Assembly (NCBI GenBank): GCA_964016885.1
Contig: OZ024742.1
Coordinates: 138,198,001-138,262,000, forward strand
Direction of reading: 5' to 3'
Source of the DNA: Eledone cirrhosa
Taxonomy: Eukaryota
Length of the DNA stretch: 64,000 nt
The stretch's first letter is position 1; each line of letters begins with the position of its first letter. The translations under genes and the position numbers were made by a program. The notes beneath the pieces were generated by a model. The model saw only the letters and a list, made by a program, of their open reading frames with translations, had not been told where the DNA came from and ran no database searches. Shown here piece after piece: positions 1-47,864 of the stretch.

Positions 1-2391
1 GTACGCATTAGCCACCTCCGCTCGACCTTTCAGGGATAGCTACCTCTCCGCCCATTTCTGAGTGAGAGAAGCCACTCTGCTCGTCACCTCGTCCCAGTTT
101 TTGTCCGTCTGGAGGTCCGGACCGAACCAGACCCCTAGCAATTTAACCGGTCCGTCCGTCCAGCGTCCGACGACGTTGTTGGTCGGCATGGAACTGCCTC
201 TCCAGGTGCCGAGCTGCAGGCCCACTGACTTTTCCTGGTTGATCATTGCTCCTGTCACCGCTTCGTATTCTCTTAGTGTAGTGCCGATCGCCTCGATGTG
301 TTTGGCGTTCGACACCACTACGGTGACATCGTCCGCATATGCTGACACGGATCTTCCGCATCCTAGTTCACGCGGGACGCCCCTCAACGTCTCCAGTTTG
401 TGCAGTAATGACTCGAGAGTCAATACGTACAAGAGGGACGAGAGGGGACATCCTTGGCGGACCGAGCGCATGATGTTGAACGGTTCCGAAAGGTGATCAT
501 TCACTCTCACCACAGAGCAGATGTCGCTGTGCATGGCAGCGATCCAGCCTCTGAAGATGGGCCCAAAGCCAGCCGCCCTCAGGACTGCCGCTAGGTAACG
601 ATGGTCGACCCTATCGAAAGTTTCGACATATCTAAATTGATCAAGGCCCCACCCGTGCCAGGTTCCCTAGCTACCCTCTCTACGATGTATCGCATGAGGT
701 GGAGGTTGTCGTAGATGGATCTGTCGGAAATGGCGCATGTCTGCGCCTCTCCCACCAAACCACCAACGACAAGCGCCAACCTCTTTGCTAGCACTTTGGC
801 CAAAATCTTGAACTCTGTGTTTAGCAGAGTTATGGGCCTGAAATTATCTATGTTATCCCCCTTGTTCGGATCCTTTCTCAGCAGTGCCACCGCTCCTCGG
901 CAAACAGAGTTGGGAATTCTCCCGTTCTGTTGCCAGTTGCAGTAGACGTCCGCCAAGAGGCCTCCGAACAAGTCTGGCATCTGTACGTAAAGTTCATAGG
1001 GCAGACCATCCAAACCAGGCGATTTACCCCTTGTGCAGCCAGTCATTGCCTCCCTTACTTCAGCGGCTGTTATCGGCTTTTCGCAACACTCCGCCTCAGT
1101 GGCGGAGAGCTGCGGCAGACCGTCGAGGTAGACACTAAAGTCCATCACTCGACCCGGCCCAACGCTGCCCCCGAACAGCTGAGCGAAGTGTCGCTGAAAA
1201 AGCCTCACACATTTTCCCGGGATCGAGTAGCATGCGCCTGTCGTGGTCCATCAAAGAACGGATCGTGGCTTTGTTGCCACGACGCGCCTCCGCCACTTGG
1301 GCCCATTGAACGGCTTTCGTCCCCTCGTGTCTGAGAGCACGCACCCTAGCTCTGACAACGCAGCCTTCGTGCTTTGCATTGAAGAATTGGTCAAGGGCCA
1401 ATTTCGCCGCAAGCACGTCGGTCGCAATGCCTTTGCTAAGCGCCTCGTGTAATTTTCTAACTAGTTTTCCCTCTGCTCTATTTTTCTCTATTGCTAAAGC
1501 CTTACTAAACCTAATGGATTCTATTCTAATCGCTCTTTTCAGAGCAAACCACCACTTGTTGTTGACGATGGCCCCCGTCAACGACCGCTTAACTAGTTCG
1601 CTAATCCGCTCTCTGTAGGCCTTGCGCGCTGGTAAGGACGCGTTTAGCTTCCAGTAGCTGGGTCCTCGTCTATGAAGCCTATCTAAGTCAAGCACACAGA
1701 TCACGAATTTGTGGTCCGTGTAGCTGACTATCTTGAATTGTGGAAAGCCTATGCTAGACCTATCTATTTCCCTACAAAATACTCTATCTAGATATGATCT
1801 GGATGACCCTATGCGATTTGTCCAAGTCCACATTGGCACATTCGGGAAATCCAATCGGTACCTGTCAGACAGTTCAAAACGCCTGAGCAGGTTGGTGAGG
1901 CTCTTGCACCCTCCATCCCTATCCACTAATCCCACGCAGTCCCAGCGTGCATCTAAGGTCCCGTTCCAGTCGCCCACTAACACTAAAGAGCGGGACGTTC
2001 CAAGTAAGGTCTCCAGATGCCGGAAGAAATCAGGCCGCTCTGCTCCTGTCGGGGCATAGACGGCCACTAGCCTAAAAGCTTGCCCGTCTCCGCTGGTCAC
2101 GTCCAGCACCACCAGCTTACCCTCTGGATCCAGGAAGATGGCCCGTATGGCGAAATCCAAACCTCTCCGAAAAAGCACAGCAACTCCTCCCCCCGATCCC
2201 GGACGGCTGGGAGATGCGTACACATCGTAGCCGCCGAAGATCGGTGCGAAGGCACGTGCTTCGGAGATTCTGGTCTCGCTGATGGCCACTACATCTATGT
2301 TTAGTGACCTGAGGTCGTTGAGCAGGTCACCCTGCTTCCATGACGACCCCAAGCCATGCGCATTTATGCTGCCTATTCTGAGTGAGGTCAT
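1..2391 (-). pseudogene. Tx1 ORF2 (APE endonuclease + reverse transcriptase), split by frameshifts near 1200 and 620
   Basis: IGSINAHG, VAISET, LVGDWNG, YLDRVF, TDHK (APE); YWKLN; KSPGLDG, NFRPITLLN, RQGCPLS, AYADD (RT) across ORFs 1135-2391, 591-1208 and 40-534. Confidence 0.95.
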
Positions 2392-2435
2392 GTTTAAAAT
2401 AGAGTGGAAAAGATGGGAAAGATGGGAAAGACCAC

Positions 2436-4571
2436 TTACCGTACTTTTCGTAGAGGAAGGATGGTTTTTCCATCCCTTTTCACTTGATCGTCTGGTGAAG
2501 GGACCGTTGAATCGTCCCTTCGGCTGGTCGTCGGCTCTTCTATGAGTATGTCCGAATATACTCTCCGGTTGAGAGTCCCTCCTAGGTCTCTGAAATCACC
2601 AACTGCGTTGGGGAATTTCGATTTAATGTTTGTGTATTGTTTCTGTGCTATTTTTAGCAGTCTTATGTTAGTTGGCGTTTTGATTGGTGCTGGTATTATG
2701 TAGTCGTGTTGTGAAATGTCTGTGTGTTCAATTATGTAAGTCATTAGTTTCTTGTTGTGTGTATTTATTGCCGTGCATTTGTTTTTCTGGGGGTGGGGTG
2801 TGGTTCTGCTATTTTCGTGTCGTTGTTCCTGGGTGTGTGTGTTTTGTTGTTGTGTTTGCGATGTTGGTGCTTGTGGTGGTAGTGTTGAAGGTGTTGTTGT
2901 TGTTGGCGGTGGGGTTGTCGCCGGTGGTGATGGTGGTGCTAGTGTGGGTGGTGATGGTGTTGGTGGTGTTGCTGCTGTGAGTCTCTTTGCAGTAGCCTTT
3001 ACCCTTTTTTCATTTCTGTCCTCCCTTTTCGAAGGCGACGATGCGCTGCTTCTGCCTTTGTGCCTTCTTACGACCTTTTGCCTCCCTCTCCCACCTCACA
3101 CTCCATGTCTGATTCTGTGAGGTCGGGGAGGGGTACCAGCTCCACTCTTTCAGTTGTTTTTGTTGGTGATGTTTGCACTGGAGTCTCTGTTGCAGCTGCA
3201 TTTGGTATTACTGTTGTTGTTGTTAATATTTCCACTGCTGCTGCTGTTTTTGATTTCCGTGGCGTGGGTATGGGTGCCACGGACCTATCGTTCCTGCTTT
3301 CCACTTGTCCTGTTGCTGATAGCCGTGGAGCCGGTTTCGGAAGGAGGGGGGTTTCTCCTTTCTCAGGGTCTTCTCGTTGCAGAAGGCCCTGAGGTGAGTC
3401 TTCGATCCACAGCGAAAGCATTTCGGGCGTTTGCGCTCAACACTTATGGGCAGTTGAGTGCCGTTATCGAAGTCTATCACATCCGGGATAGCTTCGATGC
3501 ACTCCTGGTTGGTTTCGATTAACATCTCATGGAGGTGCCGACCCAATCTTCTCTTACTTTTTTCTGTACTTGCAGTACAGTTGTTTTGTCCTCGATTCCG
3601 ACGAGGACAGACGCTGCCTGCCAAGAAGGGGCCATCCCGGGGGGGACGTGGGTCAGTTTGACCCTCACAATTTTTTGCCCGCAGTAGGAGGGCACCAACA
3701 CCATTTCCTCGCTCCTTATGGTCACTAAGGATTGAGCCTTTGCCTCCTGGGGTGTGGCAAAAAGCACGTCTACGGTGGCATATTTCTTGCCTCGGGTAAT
3801 GTGCGTTTTCCGCTTCCACACAGACCTTAAGGCTTTTTGTATTTGAGCCTCTGTGGCTCTTTCAACCCTACGGGATTTTGTGCTTACTGTACGGTACGTG
3901 AGTGTACAGTGCTGTTGGGTTTCGAAACATTTTTCGGCTGCCTTGCAGATTGTTCGGTGTCCAGTTTTTGTCATCTTCTTCGCTTCCTCTAATTCCTCAT
4001 TTGTTATGAGGATGGTTTCCAGGTTCTTTGCGATACCTGCAAACGAGATTGGTTTTTCTTTGCTGCTGTTGTTGTTGTTGTTGTTGTCGTCAGAGCTGCT
4101 GTTACTTTTGTTGTTGCTGCATGTACTACGACTACTGCCGCCGCCGCTGTTGCTGTGGTTGTTGTTGCTGCTGCTGCTGTTGTTGTTGCTGTTGCTGCTA
4201 ATGCTGTTGTTGTTTATGCTGCTGCTGTAGTTTTCCTTGTCACTGTTGCTGCTGCTGCTGTTATTACGGCTGCTACTGCTATTATTCTTGACGTCAGACG
4301 AATGAAATGGGTTTTCGTATTTCCCGAACACATTTTTCGTCGTTGTCGTCGTCGTGGAGAAATCTTGCACGCTTTGCACGGGCTTTTTGTTTTCTGGCGT
4401 CGCTTGCGAAAGAGCAGGGAGGGAGAGAGACACATTTAGAGAAGGTAGGGAGAGAGACACATTTAGAGAAGGGAGGGAGAGAGAAAATCTTCTCTCTGCT
4501 GTAGTGACGATTGAGGAAGAAGAAGCCGGAATGAATGGGAGTGACCTATGAAAATTCTTTTTCGTAGCCAT
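2436..4571 (-). pseudogene. Tx1 ORF1 (gag-like, CCHC zinc knuckle, Asn/Ser low-complexity tract), frameshifted
   Basis: ORFs 3519-4607, 3223-3819 and 2436-2744; CFRCGSKTHLRAFC knuckle; SFAGIAK motif; ATG at 4571; stop 45 nt upstream of the ORF2 ATG. Confidence 0.88.
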
Positions 4572-4789
4572 GTTGTTTTTTTTTTGTTTAAAATAAATAT
4601 TGGGCACAAAACCCCAATAAGCGGTTATTTAACCCCGAAGGGCCAAATAACGGGCAGAAAGACCCCTCTCACGAGGAGGAGGGTGTTTTTGTCTACAAGT
4701 TGGTTAAAGTTTTAAACAATTTACAATTGTTATAGCGGTCAAAATTTACAATACCTTACAGAGCCGAGCCTCCGTCAACCATAGCATTC

Positions 4790-4831
<42 letters not shown>
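4790..4831. repeat. (AAT)n microsatellite between two Tx1 insertions
   Basis: Direct reading. Confidence 0.97.
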
Positions 4832-4833
<2 letters not shown>

Positions 4834-6322
4834 TTTCATTTATTAACCACCAGAGCCGACATGTAGGGGACATATAAAGACAGGGACAGTGGGGGTTTAC
4901 AATAAGGTGGAGTAAAAGTGCACAATGGCAAGACTAATTTAACAATGAAAATATAAAAATATAAAATAAACTATGCATAAATATAACAAAATAAATTACC
5001 CGATAGGGGGTGTACGACCCTGGGGTGCTTCAGTTACCCCACCAATCCTGAACCACTCTGCGCTTTTAGGGCACCCAGGGAGAGCACCTCTCTCCTCAAG
5101 TTAGCCAGCCTATAGGCGCATGGTCAGAGTAGGCCCATTCACACGATCCATTCTCGCCACATTCACCCACCTTTTAGCAAATGTACTGTGGGGCAGCACT
5201 TCTCTCTCTACCCTTACCTTCCTTTCCAGGTGAAACTTGAAGAAGTTGATGAGAGATTGGCCGAAGAGAAAAGTGTCTGTCTTTAGTCCTTTCAACCTGG
5301 TTGACCATATAATCTCTTTCGCAACTGCCACCAGACAGAGGAAAATTTTCTGCTCTTCCTGACCTAAGGAAGGCGGTGGATCGATCTTCACTATTGACTC
5401 GGCCGATAGCCGGATTCGTTCCACACCCGACAGTAGCTGTTCGACATAACTCCACAAGTCAGTAATGCACGGACATTGGACAAGTGCGAGCAGAACGGTT
5501 TCGTCGTTCTGTGGGCATCTTGGGCAGGTCCGTCTGACAGCACTTCCGTGCCTGTAGAGTTTATCCCGAACCGGCAGAGCCCCCCGGTAGCACTGCCAAG
5601 CGAGGGATTTCTGGAAATTGTCCATCGTCCCCGGCTCAAAAGTCCTCCGGTACAGACTGGTCAGTTCGACTTCGTCGAGGCCCAAAGCTTCTCCGAGTGC
5701 GTCATCGCACTTGCCCACCACTAATCCTCTATAGAACTCGAGAGTGGAAGTTCCACTGATCGCAGTGCCCGCTTGGTAGAGGGCAGTGAGTGCCTGGCAA
5801 CATTCCAGGTGCCAGTCACCCAGTCTCTGACTCTTCTTGACCCAGGACTGCATCTCAGTAAAAGAAATGAGCTGCGAAAAGGACCGTCTGATAAATGGCG
5901 ACCACACCTGTTCACCGTTGAGGCAGAATATCTGGAGATGTCGCAGCCTCAACGCATGTCTGCGCATCATTAGCCACGGCATGCCCAGCCCTCCGCGTAG
6001 AGGGTGCTGGCAGCAGATGGACCGCCTCACCAACGGAACTTGTCCCCTCCACAAGAATTTGAAGAGGAGCCGTTCCAGCTTGACGAGGCGCGGACGGGGG
6101 CAAGGCACGACGGTCAGGCGGTAGTAGATGACGGACGCGATGTACGTATTCGCCACCTCCGCGCGACCTTTCAGTGATAGCTTCCTCCCAGCCCATTTTT
6201 GGGTGAGACTGGCTACTCTGCTCGTTACCTCGTCCCAATTCTTTTCCACCTGGAGGTCTGGTCCGAACCAAACGCCGAGCAACTTAACCGGTCCGTCCGT
6301 CCAGCGCCCCACGACGCTGTTG
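4832..6322 (-). mobile_element. 5'-truncated Tx1 LINE (ORF2 C-terminus with zf-RVT, plus 3'UTR), flanked by (AAT)n on both sides
   Basis: ORF 5110-6312: VKLLGVWFG, KLSLKGR, RGGLGMP, CPRC..ET..LVQC; its 5' part is homologous to nt 1-180 of copy A. Confidence 0.93.
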
Positions 6323-6336: not shown

Positions 6337-8548
6337 TAACTAACCAACTGGAAATCACCAGGCCCAGATGGTGTGCAGGGCTATTATATTAAAAATATAA
6401 CATCCCTCCACCTAAAACTGACAACCATGTTCAATGACTGCTTGATGTAAGGTGAGGTACCAGAGTGGTTGACAAAAGATACCACAGTTCTGGTAATGAA
6501 AGACCGAATCAAGGGTAATGATGTTACCAACTATAGACCTATCACATGTCTGTCCGTAATGTGGAAACTGTTGACAAGCATTATGTCTGAGGAAATCTAC
6601 CATCACCTCCACACAAACAACTTGTTAACGGACGAACAGAAAGGATGCCGAAAGAAGTCCCGTGGTACAAAGGGCCAGTTGCTTATTGATAAGATGGTAA
6701 TGAGGAATTGCAAGAGGAGACACACTGGTCTTGCCATGGGATGGATAGACTACAAAAAGGCATTTGACATGGTGCCTCATTCTTGGATCACCAAAAGCCT
6801 AGAGATCTTCAAGGTGGCAGATAACATCAGACAGTTGTTGGGAAAAATTATGAAGTCCTGGAAAACAGAGTTAACATCAGCTGGAGAATCCTTGGGAGGC
6901 GTGAAGATCAAGAGAAGTATCTTCCAGGGAGAGAGTCTGTCCCCTCTGTTGTTTGACCTTGCCCTGATGCCCCTGACCATTATACTGCGAAAAGTGAGAG
7001 TAGGATACAAGTTGGGAAAGGGAGAGCTTACTATCAATCACCTCCTCTTCATGGACGATCTTAAGCTCTTCGGGAAGAGTGAGAAGGAGTTGGATGTGCT
7101 TGTTGACACTGTCCGTATTTTCACCAATGATATATGTATGCAATTTGGTATTAGTAAGTGTGGAGTCCTTGTGATGAAGAGGGGTAAATTGAGCAGAAGC
7201 AACGGAATCCAGTTACCAACAGGTGAGATGATAAAGGAAATTGACAATGAAGAAGGATACAATTATTTGGGTGTTCTGGAGGCTGATGACATCAAGAACA
7301 AAAAAATGAAGGAATTGATAAGATCTGAATACATTCGGAGAGTAAGGAGCGTATTAAAGTCACATCTGAACAGTAGGAATGCCATAAGTGCAGTAAATTC
7401 CCGAGCTGTGTCTATTATTAGGTACAGTGCGGGAATTCTGAGATGGAATGTTGCAGAACAAAAAGAAATTGATAGGAAAACTAGGAAGCTATTGACTATC
7501 TACAACGTTTTCCCAAAGAGGAATGATGTCGATAGACTCTACTTAAGGAGATCTGAAGGTGGAAGAGGTCTTATCAGGATAGAGGACTGTGTTCAGATGG
7601 AGAAAAACAATCTACACAAATACGTGACTGATAGTAAGGAGCCAATGCTCAGAATTGTACTGAAGGAGAGGACAATAGACCAGGGGATGTCCAAGGAGGA
7701 AATAACAACAAGGAGAAAGAGCAGCCTCCATGAAAAATCCCTTCATAGTACCTTCTTTGAGAAAACTGAATTCAGAGATCCACAGACATGGAACTGGTTG
7801 AAAAAGGCGACAGAAGGAATGCTAATGGCTGCGCAAGAGCAGGCCCTCAAAACGAAGTGGTTGAAACGCCATATCTACAAGGAGGAGGCTAGCCCACTGT
7901 GCAGGATCTGTGGAGAGAGAAGGAGACTGTGGCTCACATTGTATCCGAGTCTAAACACCTAGCCCAGACTCACTATAAAGGCTGGAGACATGATGTGATG
8001 GGCAGGGTGATCCACTGGCACCTATGCAAAGTAAACAATTTACCACATTCTGAGAAGTGGTATGAGCATAAGCCAGAGTCGGTGATAGAAAACGATCAGG
8101 TGAAGGTGCTGTGGGATTTTAGGATACAGACGGACAAGAAACTGGAACACAATAGACCTGACCTAGTGGTTGTGGACAAGGAAAAAAGATCGTGCCTGAT
8201 TGTGGATGTGGCCTGCCCATTCGACACGAGAGTGCAAGAGAAGGAAAGGGAGAAAATTAACCGATACCAGGACTTAAAGTAGGAGGTAAAAAGGATTTGG
8301 AACTGCCATGAAGTCAAAGTGGTCCCGATTGTCATAGGCGCACTAGGTACTATCTCAAACAGTTTACAGGGATGGTTAAAGAAAATTGGCCCCGCCACGC
8401 TCTTTGGAACGCTTCAAAAGGCATGCTTGCTCTGAACAGCAAGAACCCTACGATACGTCCTGAATATCTGAGGCTGCAGGTAGTGGCTTGATATTCATTT
8501 CAACAAACTTTCCAGTTAACTAACATCAATGACTGAGACTCAATGAAC
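6337..8548 (+). mobile_element. 5'-truncated Dong/R4-clade RLE non-LTR retrotransposon (disrupted)
   Basis: [60 protein letters not shown]; stops near 6448, 8280 and 8433 and a frameshift near 7920; (AAT)n on both flanks. Confidence 0.9.
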
Positions 8549-8601: not shown

Positions 8602-11600
8602 GAACAAATTAAAGAAAGGAGCGAAAAAGTGGAGGGAGTGCATGCTCAGGATGAAACTCCAAATGAAAATAATGAGATCGTAAATGATAAAGAAATGAAT
8701 GAGAATGAACTTGCCAACTTGAAGGATGAAATTATGATCGAATGGATGAAAATGAAAGAATCTGACATGGGGGAACGAGACACCCTCCCTAAGATCCAGA
8801 ACTCCAAACAGAACCAAAAGATAATACACAAGACTAACATAATTCTCAAAAACATTATCATCACAAACAAAATAAACATTACTGACTTAAATCATCTCTA
8901 TTATGCATCGGCTAAAGTCACCACTCACTTATGTGGAGTGAAGATGAAAAAACAAAGGAATTCCCACAAGAAATCTACTTGGCAAGATAACATCAATCGC
9001 CAAATAAACCTTCTCCGATCTGACATAGAAATTTTAACAAACTATAAAGTAGGTGAACATGTTAAACAAACTAAACTTAGAAAATTGAAAAAAAAGTACA
9101 GTATAAGATCAACATGTGACATAGACATGCTGATAGAAACAATCAAGCAAAAAGTGTCGGCCAAAGCTGCTCGTATAAGGCGCTTTGAAAAACGATCTAG
9201 ATTCTATAAGGACAATAATATGTTCAAAAACAACCAAAGAAACTTCTACAGAAAAATTGGTAAGTCAACAATAACTGCTAAATCAATACCACCCAAGGAG
9301 GAAGTGCAAGAATTCTGGGAAAAGATCTGGGCCGAAGAAAAAGTTCATAACATACATGCCCCATGGATAGACAGACAAATGAAAGAAACAGCTCACCTTG
9401 AAGAACAAACATGGGAAAATATAACAGTTGAACAGCTGCGCTTGGCTCTAAGAAAAACCAGCAAATGGAAATCCCCAGGAAAAGACAAAATACAAAACTT
9501 TTGGATAAATGCCTTCACAGAGTCTCATGAGCTGTTAGCCCAACTTTACAATGAAATAGTTAAGGAGCCAGAAAAGATACCATCATGGCTAGTTAACGGC
9601 ATTACATTCCTGCTACCGAAGAATGATGAGACAAACAATCCCAAAAATTACAGACCGATAACCTGCTTGACCACAATGTATAAAATTTTAACATCAGTCC
9701 TAACTGAATACACATATGACCACCTGATAACAAATGACCTATTTCCCATTGAGCAGAAAGGGTGTAAACGAGGCTCATATGGCTGTAAGGATCAGCTTCT
9801 GGTTAACAAAATGATACTGGAAGATTGTCATAATAGACACAAAAATCTATCGATTGCTTGGATAGATTATAAAAAAGCATTTGATAGTTTGCCACACAGT
9901 TGGATTGAAAAATGTTTAGAGATTTTCAAAATATCCCCCGTTGTCAGGAGGTTTTTGTCATTCAGTATGAGGACATGGAGAACGACACTCCTTTTGAATA
10001 GTGAAACAAAATCACTGGAAGCTGGAGAAGTTAACATTAATTGTGGAATTTTTCAGGGTGACTCTTTATCACCGCTTTTATTCTGCATCGCACTTATACC
10101 ATTAAGTAAAATGCTCAATGAAACAAAACATGGATATAGAGTCTATGACAAAACCATTAATCACCTGTTCTACATGGATGACCTGAAACTATTTGCAAAA
10201 AATGATGAACAATTGCAAGGGCTATTATCCACTGTGAAGCAGTTCAGTGATGACATTAAAATGGAGTTTGGACTGGATAAATGCGCCAAAGCAACGTTCA
10301 CCAGAGGAAAGCTGCTGAAGAGTTCAGACATTAATCTTGATCGGAGGAACGTGATAAGAGAGCTTGATCAAGAACAAACTTACAAATATCTAGGTGTTTG
10401 TGAAGGAGACGGAATCAAGCACTCGACAATGAGGGAAAGGATAAGGAAGGAATGTTACCGCAGAGTCAGAGCAATCTTAAGAACGGAATTGAATGCAAGG
10501 AATAGGATCGATGCCATAAACACGCTTGCCATACCAGTAGTAACCTACAGTTACAATGTCATCAACTGGTCAAGCACAGAGATCCGTAGGCTCGATACAA
10601 AAATCCGAAAATTCTTAACCATGCACAGAATGCATCACCCTAAGGCAGACATAGATAGAATATATCTCCCTAGGAAAGAAGGAGGACGTGGGTTAATCCA
10701 GTTAGACATTGCGTTGAAAACTGCAACAATTGGATTATCCACATATCTAAGGGAATCAAATGATTGGATGATCAAACTCGTTTTGAAACACGAAAGCACC
10801 AAAAGATCATATTCCATTACAAAAGATGCACAAAGATACAGTAATGGACTACAAATTTCAGAAGTCCCATTTACTGCTGAAATGGAAAACACAGAAAAAG
10901 CAAAGCAGGTAAAAGTAACTGCAAAGAAAGAACTGCTACAGAAACTGGCTAAGAAATGGCAAGAAAAGCCTCTGTATGGAAAATACCCAGAGCGAGCTAA
11001 CAATCCTGATGTTGACAAAACTTTAACCCATCAGTGGTTGGCATCCTCTGGACTGAAATCGGAGACTGAAGGACTGATTATATCCGCACAAGATCAGTGT
11101 CTGCCAACAAAAAATTACCAAGCCAACATAATAAAAAATGGGTGCAGCCCATTATGCCGTGTATGCAAAAAACAACCAGAGACCATTGACCATATAATTT
11201 CAATGTGCAGTCCTATAGCTCCAACCGAATACCTAAACAGGCATGACAGAGCTGCACAATACATACATTGGATAATGTGTAAGCATTTTGACCTGCCCCA
11301 TCAAAAGAATTGGTGGGAGCATCAACCACCTCCCATACTTGAAAAAGATCACATCTCAATCTTGTGGAACTTTAGCATCCAAACAGACCGAAAAATAGAT
11401 GCAAATAGACCTGATATAATATTGAAGGACTTTCAAAGAAGGGTATGCCTGCTAATTGATATGTCTGTTCCAATAGACAAGAATGTATCTATAAAAACAT
11501 TTGAAAAATTGAGCAAGTATAAGGACCTGGAGATAGAAATTGGAAAAATGTGGAAATTGAGAACTAAAACAATACCAGTGGTTGTAGGCGCTCTGGGAAT

Positions 11601-11861
11601 GATACCTAAGGGGTCTAACGACTACTTATCGCAAATCCCAGGAAACCCGCGTATAGGAGAAATACAAAAGATAGTACTAATGGGAACTGCCCATATACTA
11701 AGGAAGATCCTGTCAATATAAGTACATCACAAGTCTAAACACTAAGGATGCATGTGTGAATATGTGTGTTCTTTCTTGAACATGGCGGACCTTGTTGTCT
11801 CTTGAGGTCACTGGTTGTGACTTGGTGATAACTCGTATAAACATAAAGCAAGATAAATGCA
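8601..11861 (+). mobile_element. Dong/R4-clade RLE retrotransposon, second family; 5'-truncated but ORF uninterrupted
   Basis: Single long ORF plus ~140-nt 3'UTR ending in (AAT)n. Confidence 0.93.
8629..11721 (+). CDS. RT - CCHC - restriction-like endonuclease polyprotein (1030 aa open; N-terminus probably lost)
   Basis: KWKSPGKD, YRPITCL, FQGDSLSP, FYMDDLK, CRVCKKQPETIDHIISMC, RHD, RPDIILKD..IDMSVP..KLSKY. Confidence 0.93.
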   Translation: MEGVHAQDETPNENNEIVNDKEMNENELANLKDEIMIEWMKMKESDMGERDTLPKIQNSKQNQKIIHKTNIILKNIIITNKINITDLNHLYYASAKVTTHLCGVKMKKQRNSHKKSTWQDNINRQINLLRSDIEILTNYKVGEHVKQTKLRKLKKKYSIRSTCDIDMLIETIKQKVSAKAARIRRFEKRSRFYKDNNMFKNNQRNFYRKIGKSTITAKSIPPKEEVQEFWEKIWAEEKVHNIHAPWIDRQMKETAHLEEQTWENITVEQLRLALRKTSKWKSPGKDKIQNFWINAFTESHELLAQLYNEIVKEPEKIPSWLVNGITFLLPKNDETNNPKNYRPITCLTTMYKILTSVLTEYTYDHLITNDLFPIEQKGCKRGSYGCKDQLLVNKMILEDCHNRHKNLSIAWIDYKKAFDSLPHSWIEKCLEIFKISPVVRRFLSFSMRTWRTTLLLNSETKSLEAGEVNINCGIFQGDSLSPLLFCIALIPLSKMLNETKHGYRVYDKTINHLFYMDDLKLFAKNDEQLQGLLSTVKQFSDDIKMEFGLDKCAKATFTRGKLLKSSDINLDRRNVIRELDQEQTYKYLGVCEGDGIKHSTMRERIRKECYRRVRAILRTELNARNRIDAINTLAIPVVTYSYNVINWSSTEIRRLDTKIRKFLTMHRMHHPKADIDRIYLPRKEGGRGLIQLDIALKTATIGLSTYLRESNDWMIKLVLKHESTKRSYSITKDAQRYSNGLQISEVPFTAEMENTEKAKQVKVTAKKELLQKLAKKWQEKPLYGKYPERANNPDVDKTLTHQWLASSGLKSETEGLIISAQDQCLPTKNYQANIIKNGCSPLCRVCKKQPETIDHIISMCSPIAPTEYLNRHDRAAQYIHWIMCKHFDLPHQKNWWEHQPPPILEKDHISILWNFSIQTDRKIDANRPDIILKDFQRRVCLLIDMSVPIDKNVSIKTFEKLSKYKDLEIEIGKMWKLRTKTIPVVVGALGMIPKGSNDYLSQIPGNPRIGEIQKIVLMGTAHILRKILSI

Positions 11862-11958
<97 letters not shown>
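11862..11958. repeat. (AAT)n microsatellite
   Basis: Direct reading. Confidence 0.97.
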
Positions 11959-12411
11959 GACCTGATATAATATTGAAGGACTTTCAAAGGAGGGTATGCC
12001 TGCTAATTGATATGTCTGTTCCAATAGACAAGAATGTATCTATAAACACATTTGAAAAATTGAGCAAGTATAAGGACCTGGAGATAGAAATTGGAAAAAT
12101 GTGGAAATTGAGAACTAAAACAATACCAGTGGCTGTAGGCGCTCTGGGAATGATACCTAAGGGGTCTAACGACTACTTATCGCAAATCCCAGGAAACCCG
12201 CGTATAGGAGAAATACAAAAGTTAGTACTAATGGGAACTGCCCATATACTAAGGAAGATCCTGTCAATATAAGTACATCACAAGTCTAAACACTAAGAAT
12301 GCATGTGTGAATATGTATGTTCTTTCTTGAACATGGCGGACCTTGTTGTCTCTTGAGGTCACTGGTTGTGACTTGGTGATAACTCGTATGAACATAAAGC
12401 AAGATAAATGC
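11955..12411 (+). mobile_element. Short 5'-truncated copy of the 8601-11861 element (RLE end + 3'UTR)
   Basis: Near-identical to 11404-11861 with a few substitutions; AATA microhomology at the 5' junction; (AAT)n tail 12412-12448. Confidence 0.93.
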
Positions 12412-12412
12412 A

Positions 12413-12448
<36 letters not shown>

Positions 12449-13794: not shown

Positions 13795-13846
13795 TGACAC
13801 CCAAAAGTATTAGAGTCGGCAGTTCTGTTTACATGTTTAGCTTCCA

Positions 13847-16708
13847 TTATCCGGGTCCCTGTCTATGAGTTCTATCAAGGTTGACTACGCAGGTGACTAA
13901 TTTGTGGTCTGAGTAAGTAACCATGTGAATTTCTGGACAGCTTAATGTTTCCTTATATTTCTGTCTAATTAAAAATCTATCTAAATACGATCTAGAAGAC
14001 CCAGTGCGGTTGCCCCACATACACAGTGGTACACTTGGGAAGTCTAGTCGATATCTATCAGCCAGTTGGAATTGGCTGATGAGAATTTTGAGGCTATTAC
14101 ACCCCTCTATTATCACAAGCTCCTACATAGTCCCAAAAGCATCTAAGATGCCATTCCAGTCCCCCGCTAAGACTAAGGAGCGAGACGTTCCTAGGAATGG
14201 CTCCAGACGGTTGGAGAACTCTGGTCGCGATGTCCCAGTCGGGGCATATACGGCCACCAGTCTGAAAGCTCCACCTTCACTACCATTCACGTCCAAGACC
14301 ACCAAGCTGCCCTCCGGGACCAAGTGAATCGTTTGTGCTTTGAGATCCAAGTTTTTTCGAAACAGAACAGCAACTCTCCCTCCATCCCCTGGCTGACAGA
14401 GAGATGCGTAGATCTCAAAGTCATCGAACATGGTGTTTAGCTGCTGCCTGTCGTGAATCCTGGACTCGGTGATGGCTATCACATCTATACAATGTGACCT
14501 GAGATCATTTAAAAGCTGGCCCTGTTTCCAGGGCATGCACAGTCCACGTACATTCAAACATCCAACTTGTATAGTCGCCCTGTTGGTGAAGAAGAGTTAG
14601 GAACAGAAAAGGCAGGAACACTTACCTTTTCATTTCCTGGAGGTCGAGTTGTTCGATCTCCATGTCCAGATTGGTGGTGTTTGGGGAGGGAGGGAATCCT
14701 TTTAGCGGGACACGGTTAAGGGGCTTTTGGCAAAGGGGGCCCACTTTCAATGTTTCATGTTGTAGAGTTGTTACCCTAATCAGGTTGAGGTTTAGGGGTG
14801 GGTCGTTGCTGGGGAAGGTTTTCCCTTCCGTTTAGATAATAGGGTCCTTTTTGACAGTGTCTACCAATTCTTTGTTTGTTGTTTTTATGTATGTGTAATG
14901 TGTTTTGTTTTTTATGTGTGCTGTTCCTGTTTGTAGTTTTATTTTTGTGGTTGGGGTTTGTGATTGTGGTGGTGTGGGTGTTTGTTTTGTTGGTGAAGTG
15001 TTTGGTTGTGTTGGTGGTGATTGTGCCGTTGGTGTGTTTGTCGTTTGTGGCGGTGTATTTATGGTGGGGTTGGGTGTGTGCGTATTTTCTGTAGATGTTT
15101 TTGTTTTTGTGGGGTTTTTTTGTCTCTTTTTTTTTTGTTTTCTGGATTTTTGAGGTTCCTCTTCATTCTCACTTGGAGATGTAGAGGTTCCCGTGTCTGA
15201 GACTTCTGAATCAGAGGTAGATGGGAGGGGTATGTTGTGTGGTGGAGTGTTTGTGCAGGTGTTTGTGGAAGTATTTGACAGGGACGGAGGAGGCAATGGA
15301 GGGTTTTTCAGTGGGATTTTGTGTGTTTGGTTGTCTCTGGTCTGTGGTGGTGTGGGAGTGGTTGTTGCAGATTTTTGTGTTGTGTTTGCTTTGGGGTGTT
15401 GATGTTGGGATTTGGGTTTTGGTAATAACACCTTGTTTATCCTCGGTTTATTTAAGAGAGGGCAAAAGGCCTTTAAGTGTGTGGTTTTCCCACACTTATG
15501 GCGCTGAGGTGTTTTCCCCTCCACTAAAATGGAGATGACATCTTCCTCAAGGACGATCCTGTCCGGTATTTTCTCAACTCTCTCTGGCCTCATCTGTACC
15601 AGAACCTCGATGCAGGTCCCAAACCAGTCATTCCGGTCTGTCCTGTCTACAGATAGGAGGGTGTCCTCAACCTTCTTCAGGATGCAGCGTAGGATCCACC
15701 ATATGTTGACATCTGCTGGGATCCTGGTTATTTTTATTTTGTAGGATCTTGTTCACATGTATGTGGGGAAGAAGATGTGTTGATCCGTTTTTATTGGGTG
15801 AACCGAGTGTTTTTGAGCCAGAGTTTCGCTCTTAAAGAGCACTGACACACTTCCATACTGTTTACCTCTTTGGAGGTATGCCACGTCTGGCTTGATATCT
15901 TTTAGTGCAGCTTCAATAGTGCTTGTTGAGAGCGTTATGGGTTTTTTGGTAGTGATGTCAACTGTTCTATAGATTAGTTTCTTTTTCTGTGTCATCTCTC
16001 TTACTTGTGTGGGTATGTGTATGTGTGAGTGTCTCCCTCAAACGTCACATTGCTGGAAGCTTCTTCCAAATATTGGGACTTTTGGGAAATGCCCATAGGA
16101 TAATGTTTAAAATCCTGTTGCTTAACATGTTATTTTGTTAGAAATGTTATTATTGTTGTTGTTGGTGGTGATGATGATGTCTTATTCGTTGTTTTGCCGA
16201 TGATTCCTTTTCTTGTTTTGTTGTTGTTCTCATTTATTGTGTTGTTGTTGTTGTTGCTGTTTGTGGTGGTGTTAGTATTTGCTATACATTCTTCCTTCTG
16301 TGTGTGGATACATGTGACGTTTGAGGCGTGTTCAGTTGCTTACAAGCAGCTGAAGCTTGTTCCTAAATGTTGAGGCCATAATGTTGGTATTCCTTTGTCC
16401 ATGTATGCTACTACCTGCTGGTCAAGTAGGCATGGCTTTCCCTTCCCAACTTCTTGTATTGACAAAGAAGTAGGTGCCTTTGCTCCAGCAATTTTTTTTA
16501 AAAATTGAAGTGTTTTGCAAAAATATTTTCGAAAATATGTTGGATGTTTTGCCCTGAGGGGCACGATATTTTGGGAGTCTGACCAGATCAAAATTTGATT
16601 TCTCAGTCCCTCTAAAAATTGGTATAAAAATAAAAGTTCACAATGATGAATTTCTAAAGAAATTTAAACAAAACTTACTGAGCAAGTTTAACACATGTCT
16701 CCATCAAA
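13847..16708 (-). mobile_element. Tx1 LINE copy B: 5'UTR, degenerate ORF1 and ORF2 endonuclease; truncated after the endonuclease
   Basis: ORFs 15753-15995, 14832-15593 (HKCGKTTHLKAFC), 14123-14557 and 13847-14116 (GDWNG, YLDRF, SDHK); 5' end abuts (GATA)n. Confidence 0.9.
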
Positions 16709-16744
16709 GATAGATAGATAGATATATCGATAGATAGATAAATA
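16709..16744. repeat. (GATA)n microsatellite; further runs at 17509-17540, 18298-18350 and 19830-19845
   Basis: Direct reading. Confidence 0.93.
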
Positions 16745-17507
16745 AATATATTTCTTTATTACCCACAGGGGCACAAAAGAAGGGGACAAATACAAAGGGG
16801 GAAGTTTACATACAATAAAAACGTGTAAAATGTTATCACAGATGGAATTTAAAAAAGTTAGTCGATTTTCCCCAGTAGAGGGAGACAGTTTATATGGGTA
16901 ACACATACCCCCGAAAAAAAATGTGCAACCCTCATCTCCAGGAGTACGAAGAGCTTGTACTCCTTTCCTCTCCTCCTCCTTTTCCTCAACCTACAGGCTG
17001 ATATAGAGAGAAGGCCCATTCACTCGGGCCATTCTCGCCACTTTCACCCACCTTTCATAAAACTTGCTGGGGTACAGCACCTCTCTCTCCATCTTGATTC
17101 TTCTTCCAAAGTGGTATTTGAAAAAAAGAATCAGTTATTGGCCGGAGAGAAAGGTGTCTGACCTCAGCCCTTTCAACCTTGTCCACCATACAACCTCTTT
17201 CGCCATAGCTATCACACAAAGGAAAACCGCCTCTCCTTCGTTTTTGAAGGAGGGTGGCGGTTTGATCATGACAATGGACTCGGTGGTCAACTGGATTGGT
17301 CCCACCCGCGACAATAGTCGTTCTACATAGCCCCACAGGTCAGTGACGCCCGGGCAGTGTATGAATGCGTGCGCGACGGTTTCTTCGTCTCGCACGCACC
17401 TCGGACAGATCTTTTTTGCAGGGTCCCTGCCCGGGCGCCCATGTCTGTAGAACTTGTCTCGAACTGGTAGAGCTCCTCGGTAGCACTGCCAGGCCAGGGA
17501 CTTTTGG

Positions 17508-17508
<1 letters not shown>
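16745..17508 (-). mobile_element. Tx1 3' fragment in (GATA)n
   Basis: QKSLAWQCYRGALP..CPRC..ETVAHAFIHC; 3'UTR with AATAAA before the (TATC)n tail. Confidence 0.92.
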
Positions 17509-17540
<32 letters not shown>

Positions 17541-18296
17541 TATTTCTTTATTAGCCACAGGGGCACAAAAGAAGGGGACAAATACAAAGGGGGAAGTTTA
17601 CATACAATAAAAACGTGTAAAATGTTATCACAGATGGAATTTAAAAGGTAGTCGATTTTCCCCAATAGAGGGAGACAGTTTATATGGGTAACACAGACCC
17701 CCGAAAAAAATGTGCAACCCTCATCTCCAGGAGTACGAAGAGCTTGTACTCCTTTCCTCTCCTCCTCCTTTTCCTCAACCTACAGGCTGATATAGAGAGA
17801 AGGCCCATTCACTCGGGCCATTCTCGCCACTTTCACCCACCTTTCATAAAACTTGCTGGGGTACAGCACCTCTCTCTCCATCCTGATTCTTCTTCCAAAG
17901 TGGTATTTGAAAAAAAGAATCAGTTGTTGGCCGGAGAGAAAGGTGTCTGACCTCAGCCCTTTCAACCTTGTCCACCATACAACCTCTTTCGCCATAGCTA
18001 TCACACAAAGGAAAACCGCCTCTCCTTCGTTTTTGAAGGAGGGTGGCGGTTTGATCATGACAATGGACTCGGTGGTCAACTGGATTGGTCCCACCCGCGA
18101 CAATAGTCGTTCTACATAGCCCCACAGGTCGGTAACGCCCGGGCAGTGTACGAATGCGTGCGCGACGGTTTCTTCGTCTCGCACGCACCTCGGACAGATC
18201 TTTTTTGCAGGGTCCGTGCCCGGGCGCCCATGTCTGTAGAACTTGTCTCGAACTGGTAGAGCTCCTCGGTAGCACTGCCAGGCCAGGGACTTTTGG

Positions 18297-18297
<1 letters not shown>
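17541..18297 (-). mobile_element. Tx1 3' fragment, near-identical tandem twin of 16745-17508
   Basis: Same 5' truncation point (CTTTTGGA|GATA), few SNPs. Confidence 0.92.
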
Positions 18298-18350
<53 letters not shown>

Positions 18351-18352
<2 letters not shown>

Positions 18353-19828
18353 TTCTTTATTTACCATAAAGGCATAAAAAGAAGGGACAAATACAAAGGG
18401 GGAGTTTACATATAATCGAGTAAAAAGGGTGTAACATGAAAATAATCGAAAATAACCTCAAAAGGGAGGGGACGTGATGGGGGTTGCACACACCCCCGAA
18501 AAAGTGTGCAATCCTTTTCCCGGGGAGCACATGGAGAAGGTGCTCCCCTCTCCTTTACTTCTTTACCTACAGGATGGTATACAGAGAAGGCCCATTTACA
18601 CGAGCCATTCTCGCCACTATCACCCACCTTTCATAAAACTGCCTGTGGCCAAGCACCTCTCTCTCCATTCTTATCCTTCTTCCGAAGTGATATCGGAAGA
18701 AGTAGACCAGACTATGGCCAGAGAGGAAGTTGCCTGACCTCAGACCTTTCAATCGTGTCCACCAAACAACCTCTTTCAACATGGCTATTACGCACAGAAA
18801 AACCGCCTTTGCTTCCTTTGTGAAGAGGGGAGGCGGTTTGATTGTCATCACGGACTCGGCGGTCAATTTAATCGGCGCCACCCGCGACAGCAGTTGTTCG
18901 GCGTAGCCCCACAGATCAGCCACGCCCGGACATTGCACCAATGCGTGCGCTACGGTTTCTTCGTGACGCACGCATCTAGGGCAAATCTTTTTTGAGGGAT
19001 CCCTGCCCGGGCGCCCGTGTCTGTAGAGCCTCTCTCGAACGGGTAGAGCCCCTCGGTAGCACTGCCAGGCCAGTGACTTCTGGAAGTTGTCCATTGGTCC
19101 TGGGCCGAAAGTCCTACCGAACAGGCTGGCCAGTTCGTCTTCTTCCATGTCCAGCGACTCTCCAAGGGTGTCATCGCCCCTGCTAGCCACCAGCCCTCTA
19201 TAGAATGATGAGGTGGATTCTCCACCGATGGTCCGGCCCGCTTGCCAGAGAGCCCTGAGCGCCTGAGCACACTCAGTGTGCCAGTCTCCCAGTTTTGCGG
19301 ATCTTTGCTTGACCCAGGACTGTAGCTCAGTGAGTGAGACGAGTCTCGGAAAGGCTCGTTTCACGAACGGAGCCCACACCGGTTGACCAGTGAGGAATAC
19401 CTGTAGGTGCCGTAGCCTTAATGCGTGCCTACGCATCATCAACCACGGCATCCCCAGCCCTCCTTTCGAAGGTTGTTGGCAGCAGATGGATCTTCTCACC
19501 ATAGGAGGACGCTTCTTCCAAAGAAATTGGAAGAGCATGCGTTCCATGGTGGTGAGTGTTTCCTTAGGGCAAGGCACGACAGTCAGGCGGTAGTAAGTGA
19601 CGGACGCTATGTAAATGTTCGCCACCTCCGCCCGGCCTTTTAGGGACAGCTTACACTTGGCCCATTCTGGGTTAGTGCAAACACCTTGTTCGTAACCTCG
19701 TTCCAGTTCTTTTCCACCTGGAGGTCCGGTCCAAACCAGACCCCAAGCAACTTTACCGGGCCCTCCGTCCAGTGTCCGACGACACCGTCAGGAGGCATCG
19801 GTTTGCCTCTCCACGTTCCGAGTTGCAG
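18351..19828 (-). mobile_element. Longer Tx1 3' fragment (related subfamily) in (GATA)n
   Basis: ORFs 18567-19625 and 19640-19882; (GATA)n at both ends. Confidence 0.92.
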
Positions 19829-20318
19829 ATTAGATAGATAGATAGGATATATATCTGTATTTTCTGTATCCAACTCAACCATTAATTATTCAATTGTCTA
19901 CTTTTGTTTTGTTTTTTCTTTTGATTTTTTGCAATGTATTTTTCTTTCATTTCCTCCTTGAACTATTTCCCATCTACTTTTGTAAGTCCATTTCATCCAT
20001 TCATGTATTTATCTATTTTTAACTGTCATCGAAAGCTTTCCATCACAAATTCTAACCCACTCATACAGACACTCTTCATCACCTACTTCTATTCATATTT
20101 GCTGACCTTACTGAAGGATCAGTGTGCTTACTCTTCTTGTAGGCACCGTTGACAAACACCACCAAACTACATTTCATATCGTGTAGTCACTATTCTCAGA
20201 AGGCAATTCTACCTGCCCATCATCGTGTAGTCACTATTCTGGAAATGCTATTCTACACAGAAAACTTTGAAGATACAAGTGTGTATCTACCTATTTGTCT
20301 CTCCGATGATATATATAC

Positions 20319-20833: not shown

Positions 20834-23800
20834 TTCTGGGATGGACACACGCGTGAAACTTGTTGGGTAAGTTCAGCCTAAATTTCTATAGACATTCCTA
20901 ACTGTAAACCTTCATTTTTTTACCAATTTGTAGAGGGACTGCCAGGTCAAATTTTGATCTGGTCAGTCTCTCAAAATATTCTACGCCTTTAGGCGAAATA
21001 GTTCACAAAAGTTTTTTTGGGAAAAGCTAACATTTTTTTTTAATGGCTGAAGCTTCTTCACCAACATTCGAAGGAGGAAAGGGGAATATATGCTTATAGC
21101 TACCCCCTGCCACTGTCATAGTAGCAGATTTCAAAGACAAAGGTCAGCCAGAGGAAGGATTTTCTCCACCTGCTGAGCGACAACTTGACGTTGCCATGGC
21201 AACAAACCAAAAGTGTGAAACGATGAACAAAAACAACACAACCAGCGGCACCAGCAACAACAACAACAAAACTGCTATGAACGAAAACAACACCAACAAC
21301 AATAACAATAACAACAACAACAAGACCAATAACTGCAACAAGGAAGTAAACGACAAAATATCGTTTGCGCAAACCGTAAAGAAAACGGAAAGCTACACTC
21401 CGGTAGATATTTCAAATGCAAATGAACTTTTGAATAACGCCAGACAGTACATAACTTTTGGGGAGGACGGATCATTCTCCATAAACTCTCCCCCAGATTT
21501 GCGAAGAGAGGCTGCCGTGAAAACTGTGGTTTTCTGGACAGTCTCAAACAAAACCCGAAAACCGACTCAACTTTCACAAGGCGAAATTGAGTTGGCTTTA
21601 GAAGATGCCTTAAAAGACATTGCTTTCATTCAGAAGGGTAGACTCTACGGGAGTTTATCCATTCTGAAATACTCTGTGTCGTCAATTGTGTCACCGTTGT
21701 TCACCTTTTTCCCCCACTTACATGGGGAAAAGAACACAGAAAATAAAAATCCAAAGTATCACACAAATATTGATATTTGGTGGGTACTATGTGGATTTTT
21801 AAACCTCGAAAAAGACACAATAATATCGGTAGGTAAGTCCTCCGGCGACCTGTTCAGCGGAACTAGCCTGGAAATTCTGGTCCAAATGACACCAGAACGA
21901 ATAGCTAGGATCCCGGAACGTGTGCTGCTGGATGGTCTTATATACATAAAATTTCGGTCGAGGGTAGGCGGCCCTCATGTTACCACTGCCTAAGCAGGGA
22001 TCCCCTGATAGCTTCCTGTCCTCGGCTAACTAGCCAAAAAAGGCATTACTGCTAACACATGCAACACCAGCACAACAATTACCACCACAACCACCACCCC
22101 AACAATAACAATAACATAAAAAAATAGTGACAACAAAACAAACGACAAACACAGTTCCACCCAACCCCTCCCCACCTAAAACAACTCCAGAAACACCCAC
22201 ACACATAACAGATCCCCAAAATTTACCCCTCCCCAACAACACGGATGAGGCCTCATCATCGTCACCCAGTGACGATGAGGGAGAGCCTTTCCGACCAGTC
22301 AAAAGAAAAAAGAAACGGCATAACACAAGCATAAATGCAACAAACACACAAACACCAACACAAGCGACGCAAACAGCACAAACAAAAACACCCCCTCCTG
22401 AAAAGAAAATACCTACAACAAAACGTGAACACACACAAGAACCACAGACAAAAAGCAACACAACACAACAAAAATGTTACACCTACATAAATACTAACAA
22501 TAAAACTTCAACAGCTACCATATATAAAAACCCTTCGGTGTAGACCGAAGGGAAAACTTTTACACACTCTTCGGAGAATCCTAATCTTAAAATGATTAGC
22601 ATCTCCTGTGGACACACATAAACAGTTAAAAGAAAAATTTCATAACGACATGGGTAACCCCTGCGTCAAATCCAATAACGGCGTCCTTTTGAAATGCCCC
22701 CCCCCCCCCGTCACCCCAACCCCACCCCCACCAAACATCTCTGTACCCTCCCCGCCAGAGACCACCACCCCACCAAACAACCCCTCCAACACCTCCATGG
22801 AAATTGTGCAGCCTTCTCCTCAGGAGACGAAAAGGTAAGTGATTTCTTTTCCTCTTCTTTTAACTTTTCAGCACCAACATGGCCAATAACAGAGTTGGAT
22901 GTGTGAATGTACGCGGCCTGGGGATGCCCTGGAAACACACCAAACATCTCCGTACCCTCCCCGCCAGAGACCACCACCCCACCAAACAACCCCTCCAACA
23001 CCCCCATGGAAATTGTACAGCCTACTCCACAGGGGACGAAAAGGTAAGTGATTTCTTTTCCTTTTAACTTTTCAGCACCAACATGGCCAATAAAAGAGTT
23101 GGATGTGTGAACGTACGCGGCCTGGGGATGCCCTGGAAACAGAGCAAACCCTTAAACGACCTCTGGTCGCACAGTATGGATGTAGTAGCCATTTGCGAGT
23201 CCAGGATCCACAGCCAGCCCCAACTGGCCCCCATCTTCGACGACTTTGAGATCTACGCATCTCTCTGTCAGCCGGGAGATTGGGGTGGGGTTGCCATTTT
23301 GCTGCGGAAACACCTGGACCTCGTAACACAGACGGTACATCTGGACTCGGAGGGTCGACTGGTGGTCCTAGACGTTGACGGTAGTGAAGGTGGAGCCTTC
23401 AGGCTGGTGGCCGCATATGCCCCATCGGGGACACCGCGGCCAGACGTCTTCAAACGTCTAGAGACTTTTCTGGGAACGTCCCGCTCCTTGCTGTTAGTGG
23501 GGAACTGGAATGGAATCCTAGATGCACGTTGGGACTATGTGGGAGCATGTCCCGATAGAGGGGGAGTGTAACAGCCTCAAACAGTTAATCGGCCGATTTG
23601 ACCTGGCTGATAGGTATCGACTAGATTTTCCGACTGTGCCACTGTAGACGTGGACTAATCGTAGCGGAACATCTAGATCGTACCCAGATAGGGTTCTAGT
23701 TAGAAAGAAGAATAAGGACATGTTAAGCTGTCCACAAATGTTCATGGTTGCCTATTCAGATCAGAAATTAGTGACCTGCTTAGTCAATCTTGACAAAACC

Positions 23801-25130
23801 CAAAGACCCGGCTACTGGAAGCTGAACTTGTCGTTACCGACATGCAAAACCTACAGTAGACGGATTAGCACTTTAGTTAAGCAACACTTCACGGGCACCA
23901 TTGTCAACACAGATGGTGGTACTCTCTCAAGTGGGCAGATTAGACTCGATAGGTTTTAGTAAAGAATTAGTGTTAGATAGAAATAAGACAAGACCGAAAA
24001 GGAACTGGTAGATAAAGTAGAAGAGGTACTTAGGAGTGGCAACGTAACCAGCGTGCTAGCGAGGAGAACGGCCTTGGACCAGTTCTTCGACGCAAAGCAT
24101 GAAGGCTGCGTTGTCAGAAGCAACCCTCGCCAAAATTGAGCGCGCTCTTCCAATTCCTTTGGAAGAAACGGGCTCCTTTGGTGAGAAGATCCATCTGCTA
24201 CCAACACCCTTCAAACGGAGGCTGGGGATGCCGTGGGTGACGATGCGCAAACACGCGCTCAGGCTGCGGCACCTCCACGTATTCCTCACCGGACAACCGG
24301 TGAGGGGCCCGTTCGTGAGGCGAGCCTTCCCACGATTCGTCTCGCTGACCGAGCTGCAGTCTTGGGTCAAGCAAAGACAGAGGAAAATGGGCGACTGGCA
24401 TATCGAATGTGCTCAAGCGCTCACAGTCCTCTGGAAAACGGACCCGGCGATCAGTGGAGTCTCCACTTCGACATTCTATAGAGGGTTGGTCCGCAGCAAG
24501 TGCGACGACGCGCACGGAAACTGGGCGTAGAGGAGGACGAACTGGCCAGTCTATTCGGTAGGACCTTCCGCCCGGAACCAATGGACAACTTCCAAAAGTC
24601 CCTGGCCTGGCAGTGCTACCAAGGAGCTCTACCATTTCGAGACAAGGTCTACAGTCACGGGCGCCCGGGCAGGGACCCTTCGAAAAAGATCTGATCGAGA
24701 TGCGTGCGCGACGAGGAAACTATCGCGCACGCATTTGTACGCTGCCCGGGAGTTACCGACCTGTGGGGCTATGTAGATCGACTATTGTCGTGGGTGGGAC
24801 CAATCCAGTTGACCACCGAGTCCATTGTCATGATCAAACCGCTACCCTCCTTCAAAAACGAGGGAGAGACGGTTTTCCTATGTGTTATGGCTATGGTGAA
24901 AGAGGTTATATGGTGGACGAGGTTAAAACGGCTGAGGTGAGACACCTTTCTCTCCGGCGAGCAACTGATTCGTTTTTTCAAATATCATTTTGGTAGAAGA
25001 TTCAGGATGGAGAGAGAAGTGCTGTATCCCAGCAAATTTGATAAAAGGTGGGTGAATGTGGCGAAGATGGCCTGAGTGGTTGGGCCTCCTCTCTATATAA
25101 GCCTGTAGGTTGAGGAAAAAGAGGAAGAGC
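20834..25130 (+). mobile_element. Tx1 LINE copy C: 5'UTR, ORF1, endonuclease and ORF2 C-terminus; RT deleted; junction duplicated
   Basis: 5'UTR homologous to copy B; ORF1 pieces 21196-22838; MANKRVGCVNVRG endonuclease; jump from HEGCVVR to post-RT sequence near 24119; preceded by a TATC remnant. Confidence 0.9.

Positions 25131-47815: not shown

Positions 47816-47860
<45 letters not shown>

Positions 47861-47864
<4 letters not shown>

Follow-up and report, generated by a model that had tools for sequence, protein, structure and literature searches.

Introduction

The prevailing view is that L1-type elements translate ORF2p from RNA that has not been spliced, and that splicing harms them; as summarised in PMC5860796, the proteins of L1 act preferentially on the RNA that encodes them, and insertions of spliced L1 RNA are dead ends. 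L1 keeps a conserved 5' UTR donor despite this harmful splicing (SpIREs); the donor is used with several acceptors, and its retention is accounted for by a RUNX3 site that overlaps it (PMC5860796). Introns are also kept in the transcripts of Tad, kangaroo-1, Penelope and Athena, and the antisense introns of TART (53–67 nt) are similar in size across diverged subfamilies (PMC1636488). The TART introns and the promoter-linked L1 donor indicate that conserved splice signals need not mean a splice-dependent ORF2. Nor would a missing ATG force splicing, since L1 ORF2 translation is AUG-independent (PMC4091050, PMC11485995). Within the Tx1 clade, the insertion targets of Kibi and Koshi are (TC)n and (TTC)n (PMC4494074), and L1-Tx1 families have recently been active in Octopus vulgaris (PMC13282606). 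The summary descriptions of Kibi, Koshi and the crocodilian Tx1 families report no conserved splice signals, and none are described for the Tx1 ORF1/ORF2 junction in the literature covered here, largely at abstract level. Repeat libraries in published supplements could already describe the families presented below.

Here, a 64,000-nt stretch of the Eledone cirrhosa genome (contig OZ024742.1, positions 138,198,001 to 138,262,000; hereafter the window) is analysed, with positions counted from its first letter. Three of its retrotransposons, copies A, B and C, each represent a different family. Like the Tx1 elements Kibi, Koshi and the crocodilian families, they have two ORFs with APE, RT and zf-RVT domains in ORF2, and their 5' ends adjoin microsatellites, with repeat units other than those of the microsatellite-targeting members ((TATC)n/(TTA)n here). 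As in mammalian L1, the organization is bicistronic with a short spacer (63 nt in L1, 35–44 nt here), and the endonuclease is homologous to that of L1 ORF2p (E about 4e-6). Unlike L1, the three families conserve both ends of a fixed 67-nt segment and carry a second donor on the ORF1 stop. The TART introns are antisense and non-coding, whereas the signals seen here have sense orientation and keep the phase of ORF2. In SART1, RNA structure near the ORF1 stop is implicated in ORF2 expression (PMC5972666), which resembles the situation here, but the present elements have no overlapping stop-start and their predicted hairpin spans the stop itself.

An earlier note on this DNA had observed that ORF2 of copy B starts with AGG in place of ATG, and had proposed that acceptor turnover made ORF2 splice-dependent, with a single T>G mutation after insertion as the alternative. 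The evidence bearing on these two readings, and on the splice-type signals that surround them, is set out below.

Retrotransposons of the window

Several L1/Tx1-type pieces lie amid microsatellites in the first 25 kb of the window, and three of them include the 5' half: copy A (~4790 to 1, minus strand), copy B (~16710 to 13830, minus) and copy C (~20835 to 25130, plus), the last with an internal deletion near 24120. ORF2 starts with an APE endonuclease, for which the Pfam family Exo_endo_phos scores above cut-off in A and B and reaches E 0.0015 in C, and the top PDB matches are L1 EN structures. RVT_1 is found in copy A and zf-RVT in neighbouring 3' fragments. A separate ORF1 with a CCHC knuckle ahead of ORF2 is typical of Tx1; the knuckle is intact in A and damaged in B and C, and a Pfam search of the ORF1 pieces gave no match. 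Judged by their sequences, with an APE endonuclease, an RT, a C-terminal zinc motif and a separate ORF1, the three copies classify as L1/Tx1-type non-LTR retrotransposons. A search of protein representatives gave a named protein of Argonauta hians as the best match, suggesting a clade of octopod type. A Tx1-like placement is plausible; the 15 clusters looked up included no named Tx1 reference sequence.

The 5' end of each of the three copies adjoins (TATC)n or (TTA)n, and so do four 3' ends, a pattern that may reflect a target preference but comes from few copies. In addition, 5'-truncated 3' ends of related elements are stacked in (TATC)n/(TTA)n directly upstream of B (16710-19830, minus) and of A (4810-6320, minus), two of them identical at 750/761 positions, which suggests repeated insertion into the same microsatellites. 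The window also contains an uninterrupted RT ORF of 1039 codons (8602-11721, plus), whose C-terminus we take to resemble a restriction-like endonuclease of the Hero/NeSL type. The end of this ORF is duplicated over 494 nt at 98.6% identity (11404-11897 and 11955-12448), and a related partial RT lies upstream of it (6451-7962, plus). A further RT ORF fragment with a Pfam RVT_1 match is located at 34383-35633 (minus), a 70-nt tandem array of about 14 copies at 27272-28284, and direct and inverted duplicates of 97-99% identity at 47859-49859. A search of positions 1-26000 against Rfam returned nine matches, every one under the gathering score.

The ORF1/ORF2 junction

On the minus strand, copy B reads TCTTCTT-CACCAAC-AGG-GCG where copy C reads TTTTCAG-CACCAAC-ATG-GCC, exactly as the earlier note had it. 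The AGG (14579..14581, minus) occupies ORF2 codon 1, which is ATG in C and A, and the AG within it (14581-14580) is a candidate phase-2 acceptor. The preceding CACCAAC (14582..14588, minus) is a start-codon context with A at -3, in line with the start-context rule. The junction of copy C is present twice through a tandem duplication (22729-23149, plus; copies 22729-22945 and 22938-23149), here called C1 and C2, with the ATG at 22879 and at 23083; the duplicates differ at some 10 substituted positions and by 5 nt deleted from the spacer, and both keep the donor, AG and ATG. Since B and C1 are colinear and gap-free from the donor motif into ORF2, with 40 nt from the stop to codon 1 in both, the AGG is the positional homologue of the ATG.

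The ORF1 stop TAA of copy B (14624-14622) is overlapped by AAG/GTAAGT (14620..14628, minus), which matches the donor consensus at 9/9 positions. Such a perfect match occurs three times in 128 kb (both strands), at the junctions of B, C1 and C2, and the copy A junction has ACG/GTAAGT (8/9), so that all three families keep a strong donor motif at the ORF1 stop. The remaining details of the earlier description also held. The AG of copy B ends 46 nt from the donor and that of C1 37 nt from it, which amounts to a shift of 9 nt with phase 2 in both, and a CTAAC fitting the branch consensus (14596..14600, minus) lies 28 nt from the donor, with its branch A 17 nt before the AG end. This branch-like motif predates B, as C1 has a homologous TTAAC, also 28 nt from its donor. 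With a 9/9 donor, CTAAC, 76-79% pyrimidine and CAG, the signals of a U2-type intron are present at the B junction. The candidate intron, which would begin with the donor at 14625, measures 46 nt, of which 28 nt separate the donor and the branch motif; both values approach the smallest known to work. For comparison, a 43-nt human intron is spliced at low efficiency and the shortest known intron is 30 nt (PMC4675715).

In A, B and C alike, the first AG after the donor is in the frame of ORF2, although it lies at three non-homologous positions (p about 0.02-0.04). Copy B has three AGs in the first 104 nt after the donor, of which only that of the AGG is phase 2; the in-phase AGs of A and C are located elsewhere, and both are absent from B. 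In C1 (22832..22892, plus) the donor is at 22835, the AG ends at 22871 and the AG of the Arg-5 codon at 22892; the corresponding positions in C2 (23041..23096, plus) are 23044, 23075 and 23096. In copy A (2378..2442, minus) the donor sits at the ORF1 stop, the ATG at 2391, and the first AG, again phase 2, ends at 2378. The upstream AG of copy C is doubtful as an ancestral acceptor, for the branch A is no more than 8 nt away and the resulting introns would measure 37 or 32 nt. The Arg-5 AG, which would give introns of 58 nt (C1), 53 nt (C2) and 62 nt (A) and lies 29 nt from the branch A of C1, fits better as the more natural homologous acceptor; copy B has CAA at this codon and therefore not that AG. 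When eight in-silico splice junctions were compared with the window, none (0/8) matched in spliced form, and the sole match was the unspliced C2 copy.

The purine-rich end of ORF1 is predicted to pair with the pyrimidine spacer in a hairpin of 9+5 bp in copy B (14599..14638, minus), which would cover AG/GUA of the donor and most of the pyrimidine tract. Equally stable structures arise in 5/2000 spacer shuffles. A hairpin is likewise predicted in copy A (2450-2408, minus) over the ORF1 stop and donor (29/2000 shuffles), while that of copy C is weaker and not significant (335/2000 and 1043/2000 shuffles for its two junctions). The predicted hairpin thus offers a structural explanation for the pyrimidine tract in two of the three families.

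Ancestral state of the ORF2 start codon and decay of copy B

The endonuclease tree, built from 19 sequences, places B and C as sisters (99/99), with A, P0001 and P0004, all of which have Met at codon 1, outside the pair. The window copies A, C1 and C2 have ATG at codon 1 and are free of gene-calling bias. Together, these observations show that ATG is ancestral at ORF2 codon 1 and that AGG arose on the branch of B. That A and C have both retained the ATG is, taken by itself, weak evidence of constraint (p about 0.14 under neutrality). Fifteen database relatives were inspected, 13 of them from the 150 listed among 4398 HMMER matches to ORF2 of A (at least 33% identity, match reaching query position 8), together with P0001 and P0002 from a protein word search. 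Met occupies the exact codon in 8/15 and lies within two residues in 14/15, counts that are biased because gene callers require a start, write GTG/TTG as M and truncate startless proteins. The exception, P0073, has Thr at codon 1; it is a long-branch, frameshifted and decayed protein that does not group with B, which shows that decayed copies do lose this codon. The 9-residue leader of P0073 loosely resembles the 5' ATG-led stretch of B, but this is probably chance, and P0073 was rejected as a spliced relative of B on account of its frameshifts, long branch and position in the tree.

Searches for closer relatives of B found no family-B copy in the proteins and the bacterial and archaeal genomes covered, the nearest identities being 61-75%. 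A word search with the B endonuclease matched 5/58 candidate proteins at 61-72% identity, a search of longer proteins matched 1/999 (75% over half of the query, with no fusion), and a 75-aa query from the same domain confirmed 0/1 candidates. A scan of bacterial and archaeal genomes matched 92 patterns, none of which was confirmed. None of the close matches among the 150 listed of 4398 HMMER hits has an ORF1-sized N-terminal extension; as gene calls ignore splicing, this is weak evidence against an ORF1-ORF2 fusion.

Copy B is decayed. Its ORF2 fragment (13835..14581, minus), which encodes the APE endonuclease and is broken off at about 13830, has two frameshifts near 14140-14100 and one further stop, and its decayed ORF1 (14622..16492, minus) has four in-frame stops, at least one frameshift and no first Cys in the zinc knuckle. 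The ORF1 start (16492-16490, minus) reads ATT-GCT compared with ATG-GCT in A and C, and the next codons are conserved. Four stops in 759 codons (three without the stop common to C) correspond to 3-5% substitutions per site, with a 95% range of about 1-13%. At this level of decay a given ATG is lost with a chance of 9-15%. Neutral divergence of B after insertion (~0.03-0.05), compared with 0.56 between B and C, implies that most of the neutral branch of B predates insertion. CACCAAC is identical in B and C at 7/7 positions, whereas four-fold sites of the two copies agree at 60% (p about 0.03) and the early spacer at 7/20. The conservation of CACCAAC suggests that it was maintained as the context of a start codon until not long ago.

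As a separate observation, B (~14834, minus, TAA) and C (~22541, plus, TAG) share the position of a stop codon, some 70 codons short of the end of ORF1. This shared stop is followed by the conserved GAAGGGAAAAC, and an in-frame ATG, also shared, lies 13 codons before the ORF1 end. The stop may reflect coincident decay, a true earlier stop or read-through.

A fixed-length segment near the 5' end

Within about 35 nt of the 5' end of each family, a GTAAG opens a segment that ends in ACCAA..TAG and is exactly 67 nt long in 3/3 families. It lies at 16612..16678 (minus) in B, after a 26-nt ATG-led stretch (16704-16679), at 20867..20933 (plus) in C, again after 26 nt (20841-20866), and at 4693..4759 (minus) in A, after 23 nt (4782-4760). 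The ATG-led stretch ends in phase 2 in all three. In comparisons of A with B and C, conservation of the segment is confined to its two ends. Matches between A and C amount to 4/26 upstream, 5/6 in the donor, 13/46 in the middle, 13/15 in the last 15 nt and 21/60 downstream, and end conservation is significant for A and C (p 5e-5, AG excluded) and for A and B (p 0.012). Shuffling each 5' end yields a loose donor-acceptor pair of this type about 2% of the time, and no unusual folding is predicted for the 5' segments. The segment, which the earlier note does not mention, is thus a candidate 5' leader intron, and its profile of conservation makes it probable that the intron is real.

Translation of the leader as an extension of ORF1 was considered and set aside. 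In A and C the leader is in frame but has one stop each (shuffle p 0.32 and 0.28), and the leader of B, though open (p 0.05), misses the frame by one base. A join from the donor of the 67-nt segment to the junction AG would keep the ORF2 frame in each of the three families, which removes the objection to splicing posed by the short junction intron, although such a join would skip the nearer acceptor and pass the perfect donor at the ORF1 stop.

Origin of the AGG codon

The balance of evidence leans towards a private mutation of copy B after insertion, a single T>G change that the earlier note had offered as its alternative and that is favoured by the ancestral ATG, the decay of the copy, the ATT at its ORF1 start and the intact start context. 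Copy B would then be an old and defunct insertion of an L1/Tx1-type retrotransposon that is associated with microsatellites; its family most likely began ORF2 at an ATG, like its relatives, from unspliced two-ORF RNA. By analogy with L1 and SART1, ORF2 was probably reached by re-initiation past the ORF1 stop. The T>G change, presumably later than the insertion, would have turned ATG into AGG as one among many neutral lesions, and the in-phase AG would be its by-chance product. Against this reading stands the low chance of T>G at the middle base of codon 1 by decay alone (about 0.7-1.4% per copy); the change also yields the only phase-2 AG in the first 104 nt after the perfect donor of copy B. 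The small post-insertion share of the neutral branch of B, the bias in the database Met counts, the limited weight of ATG retention in A and C and the lack of a significant hairpin in C likewise count against it. Separately, the clade keeps splice-type signals, comprising the ends of the 67-nt 5' segment and the ORF1-stop donor, the latter partly masked by the predicted hairpin. As genomic copies derive from unspliced RNA, these signals probably serve a minority of transcripts, or act as U1 or structure elements. The weight given here to each competing reading is a matter of judgement and was not computed.

The proposal that family B fixed the AGG and made ORF2p from spliced RNA is unlikely, though it is the strongest competitor. 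Its splice-like setting is real and conserved, and this part of the earlier proposal stands; the step to a family-level change in B is not the best reading. ORF2 could be reached by an ORF1-ORF2 fusion through the 46-nt intron, or by joining the 5' ATG mini-exon to the junction AG over ~2.1 kb, both in frame. The perfect donor, the phase-2 first AG at three positions in 3/3 families, the branch motif at 17 nt and the lack in B of another in-phase AG nearby agree with this proposal, as do the phase-2 ATG-led stretch that joins the junction AG in frame in three families and the intron-like conservation of the 67-nt segment. Both internal start codons of B are absent, as expected were a 5' exon to supply the start. 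However, the other window copies retain the ATG, B is decayed and has also lost its ORF1 ATG, and CACCAAC is intact; being A-rich, it makes a poor pre-acceptor tract, the same as in C. An intron of 46 nt whose branch motif follows the donor by 28 nt is close to the lower limit of PMC4675715, the predicted hairpin also offers an explanation for the tract, and the AUG-independence of L1 ORF2 translation suggests that a lost ATG would not call for splicing. Joining the 5' exon to ORF1 in B would miss the frame by one base, with 119 nt up to the ATT at 16492. All 3/3 insertions are unspliced at both sites; for L1, spliced insertions are described as dead ends in PMC5860796. An extended form of the proposal is comparably improbable. 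In it, the clade would make ORF2 by alternative splicing, from the 5' ATG exon or the ORF1 end to the phase-2 acceptor, and copy only unspliced RNA; in family B, with its internal ATGs lost, the start codon would have become the sole usable acceptor and the family obligately spliced. If true, family B would be an obligately spliced two-ORF LINE escaping cis preference.

Less likely still is an AGG fixed in family B with no splicing, where ORF2 would be translated by AUG-independent re-initiation past the ORF1 stop, helped by a stop-codon hairpin. Human L1 sets a precedent, as its AUG-independent ORF2 translation requires an upstream ORF (PMC4091050); changes to the start codon are tolerated in the re-initiation of caliciviruses, and SART1 makes use of RNA structure (PMC5972666). 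The hairpin is predicted in B and A; on the other side, relatives keep Met at codon 1 and copy B is decayed. A consensus or sequencing error at the codon 1 base is very improbable, for although B and C show indels in homopolymer runs, the change is a substitution outside any run, and the uninterrupted 1039-codon RT ORF nearby indicates that the local sequence is not error-rich.

Implications

The sequence, positions, phases, conservation, decay and ancestral ATG are shown here, and a conserved splice architecture in this octopod-type, Tx1-like clade is a plausible reading of them. The lasting value of the locus would appear to lie in this splice-type architecture of the clade more than in the AGG itself. 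If the AGG is private to copy B, it is an ordinary decay lesion, and the conserved splice architecture still matters. If it is shared by the family, a LINE would here have dispensed naturally with the start codon of ORF2, via splicing or AUG-independent initiation. A clade that combines a 5' intron of constant length with a perfect donor at the ORF1 stop would allow a direct test of how the ORF1p:ORF2p ratio is set and of how the RNA to be copied is protected.
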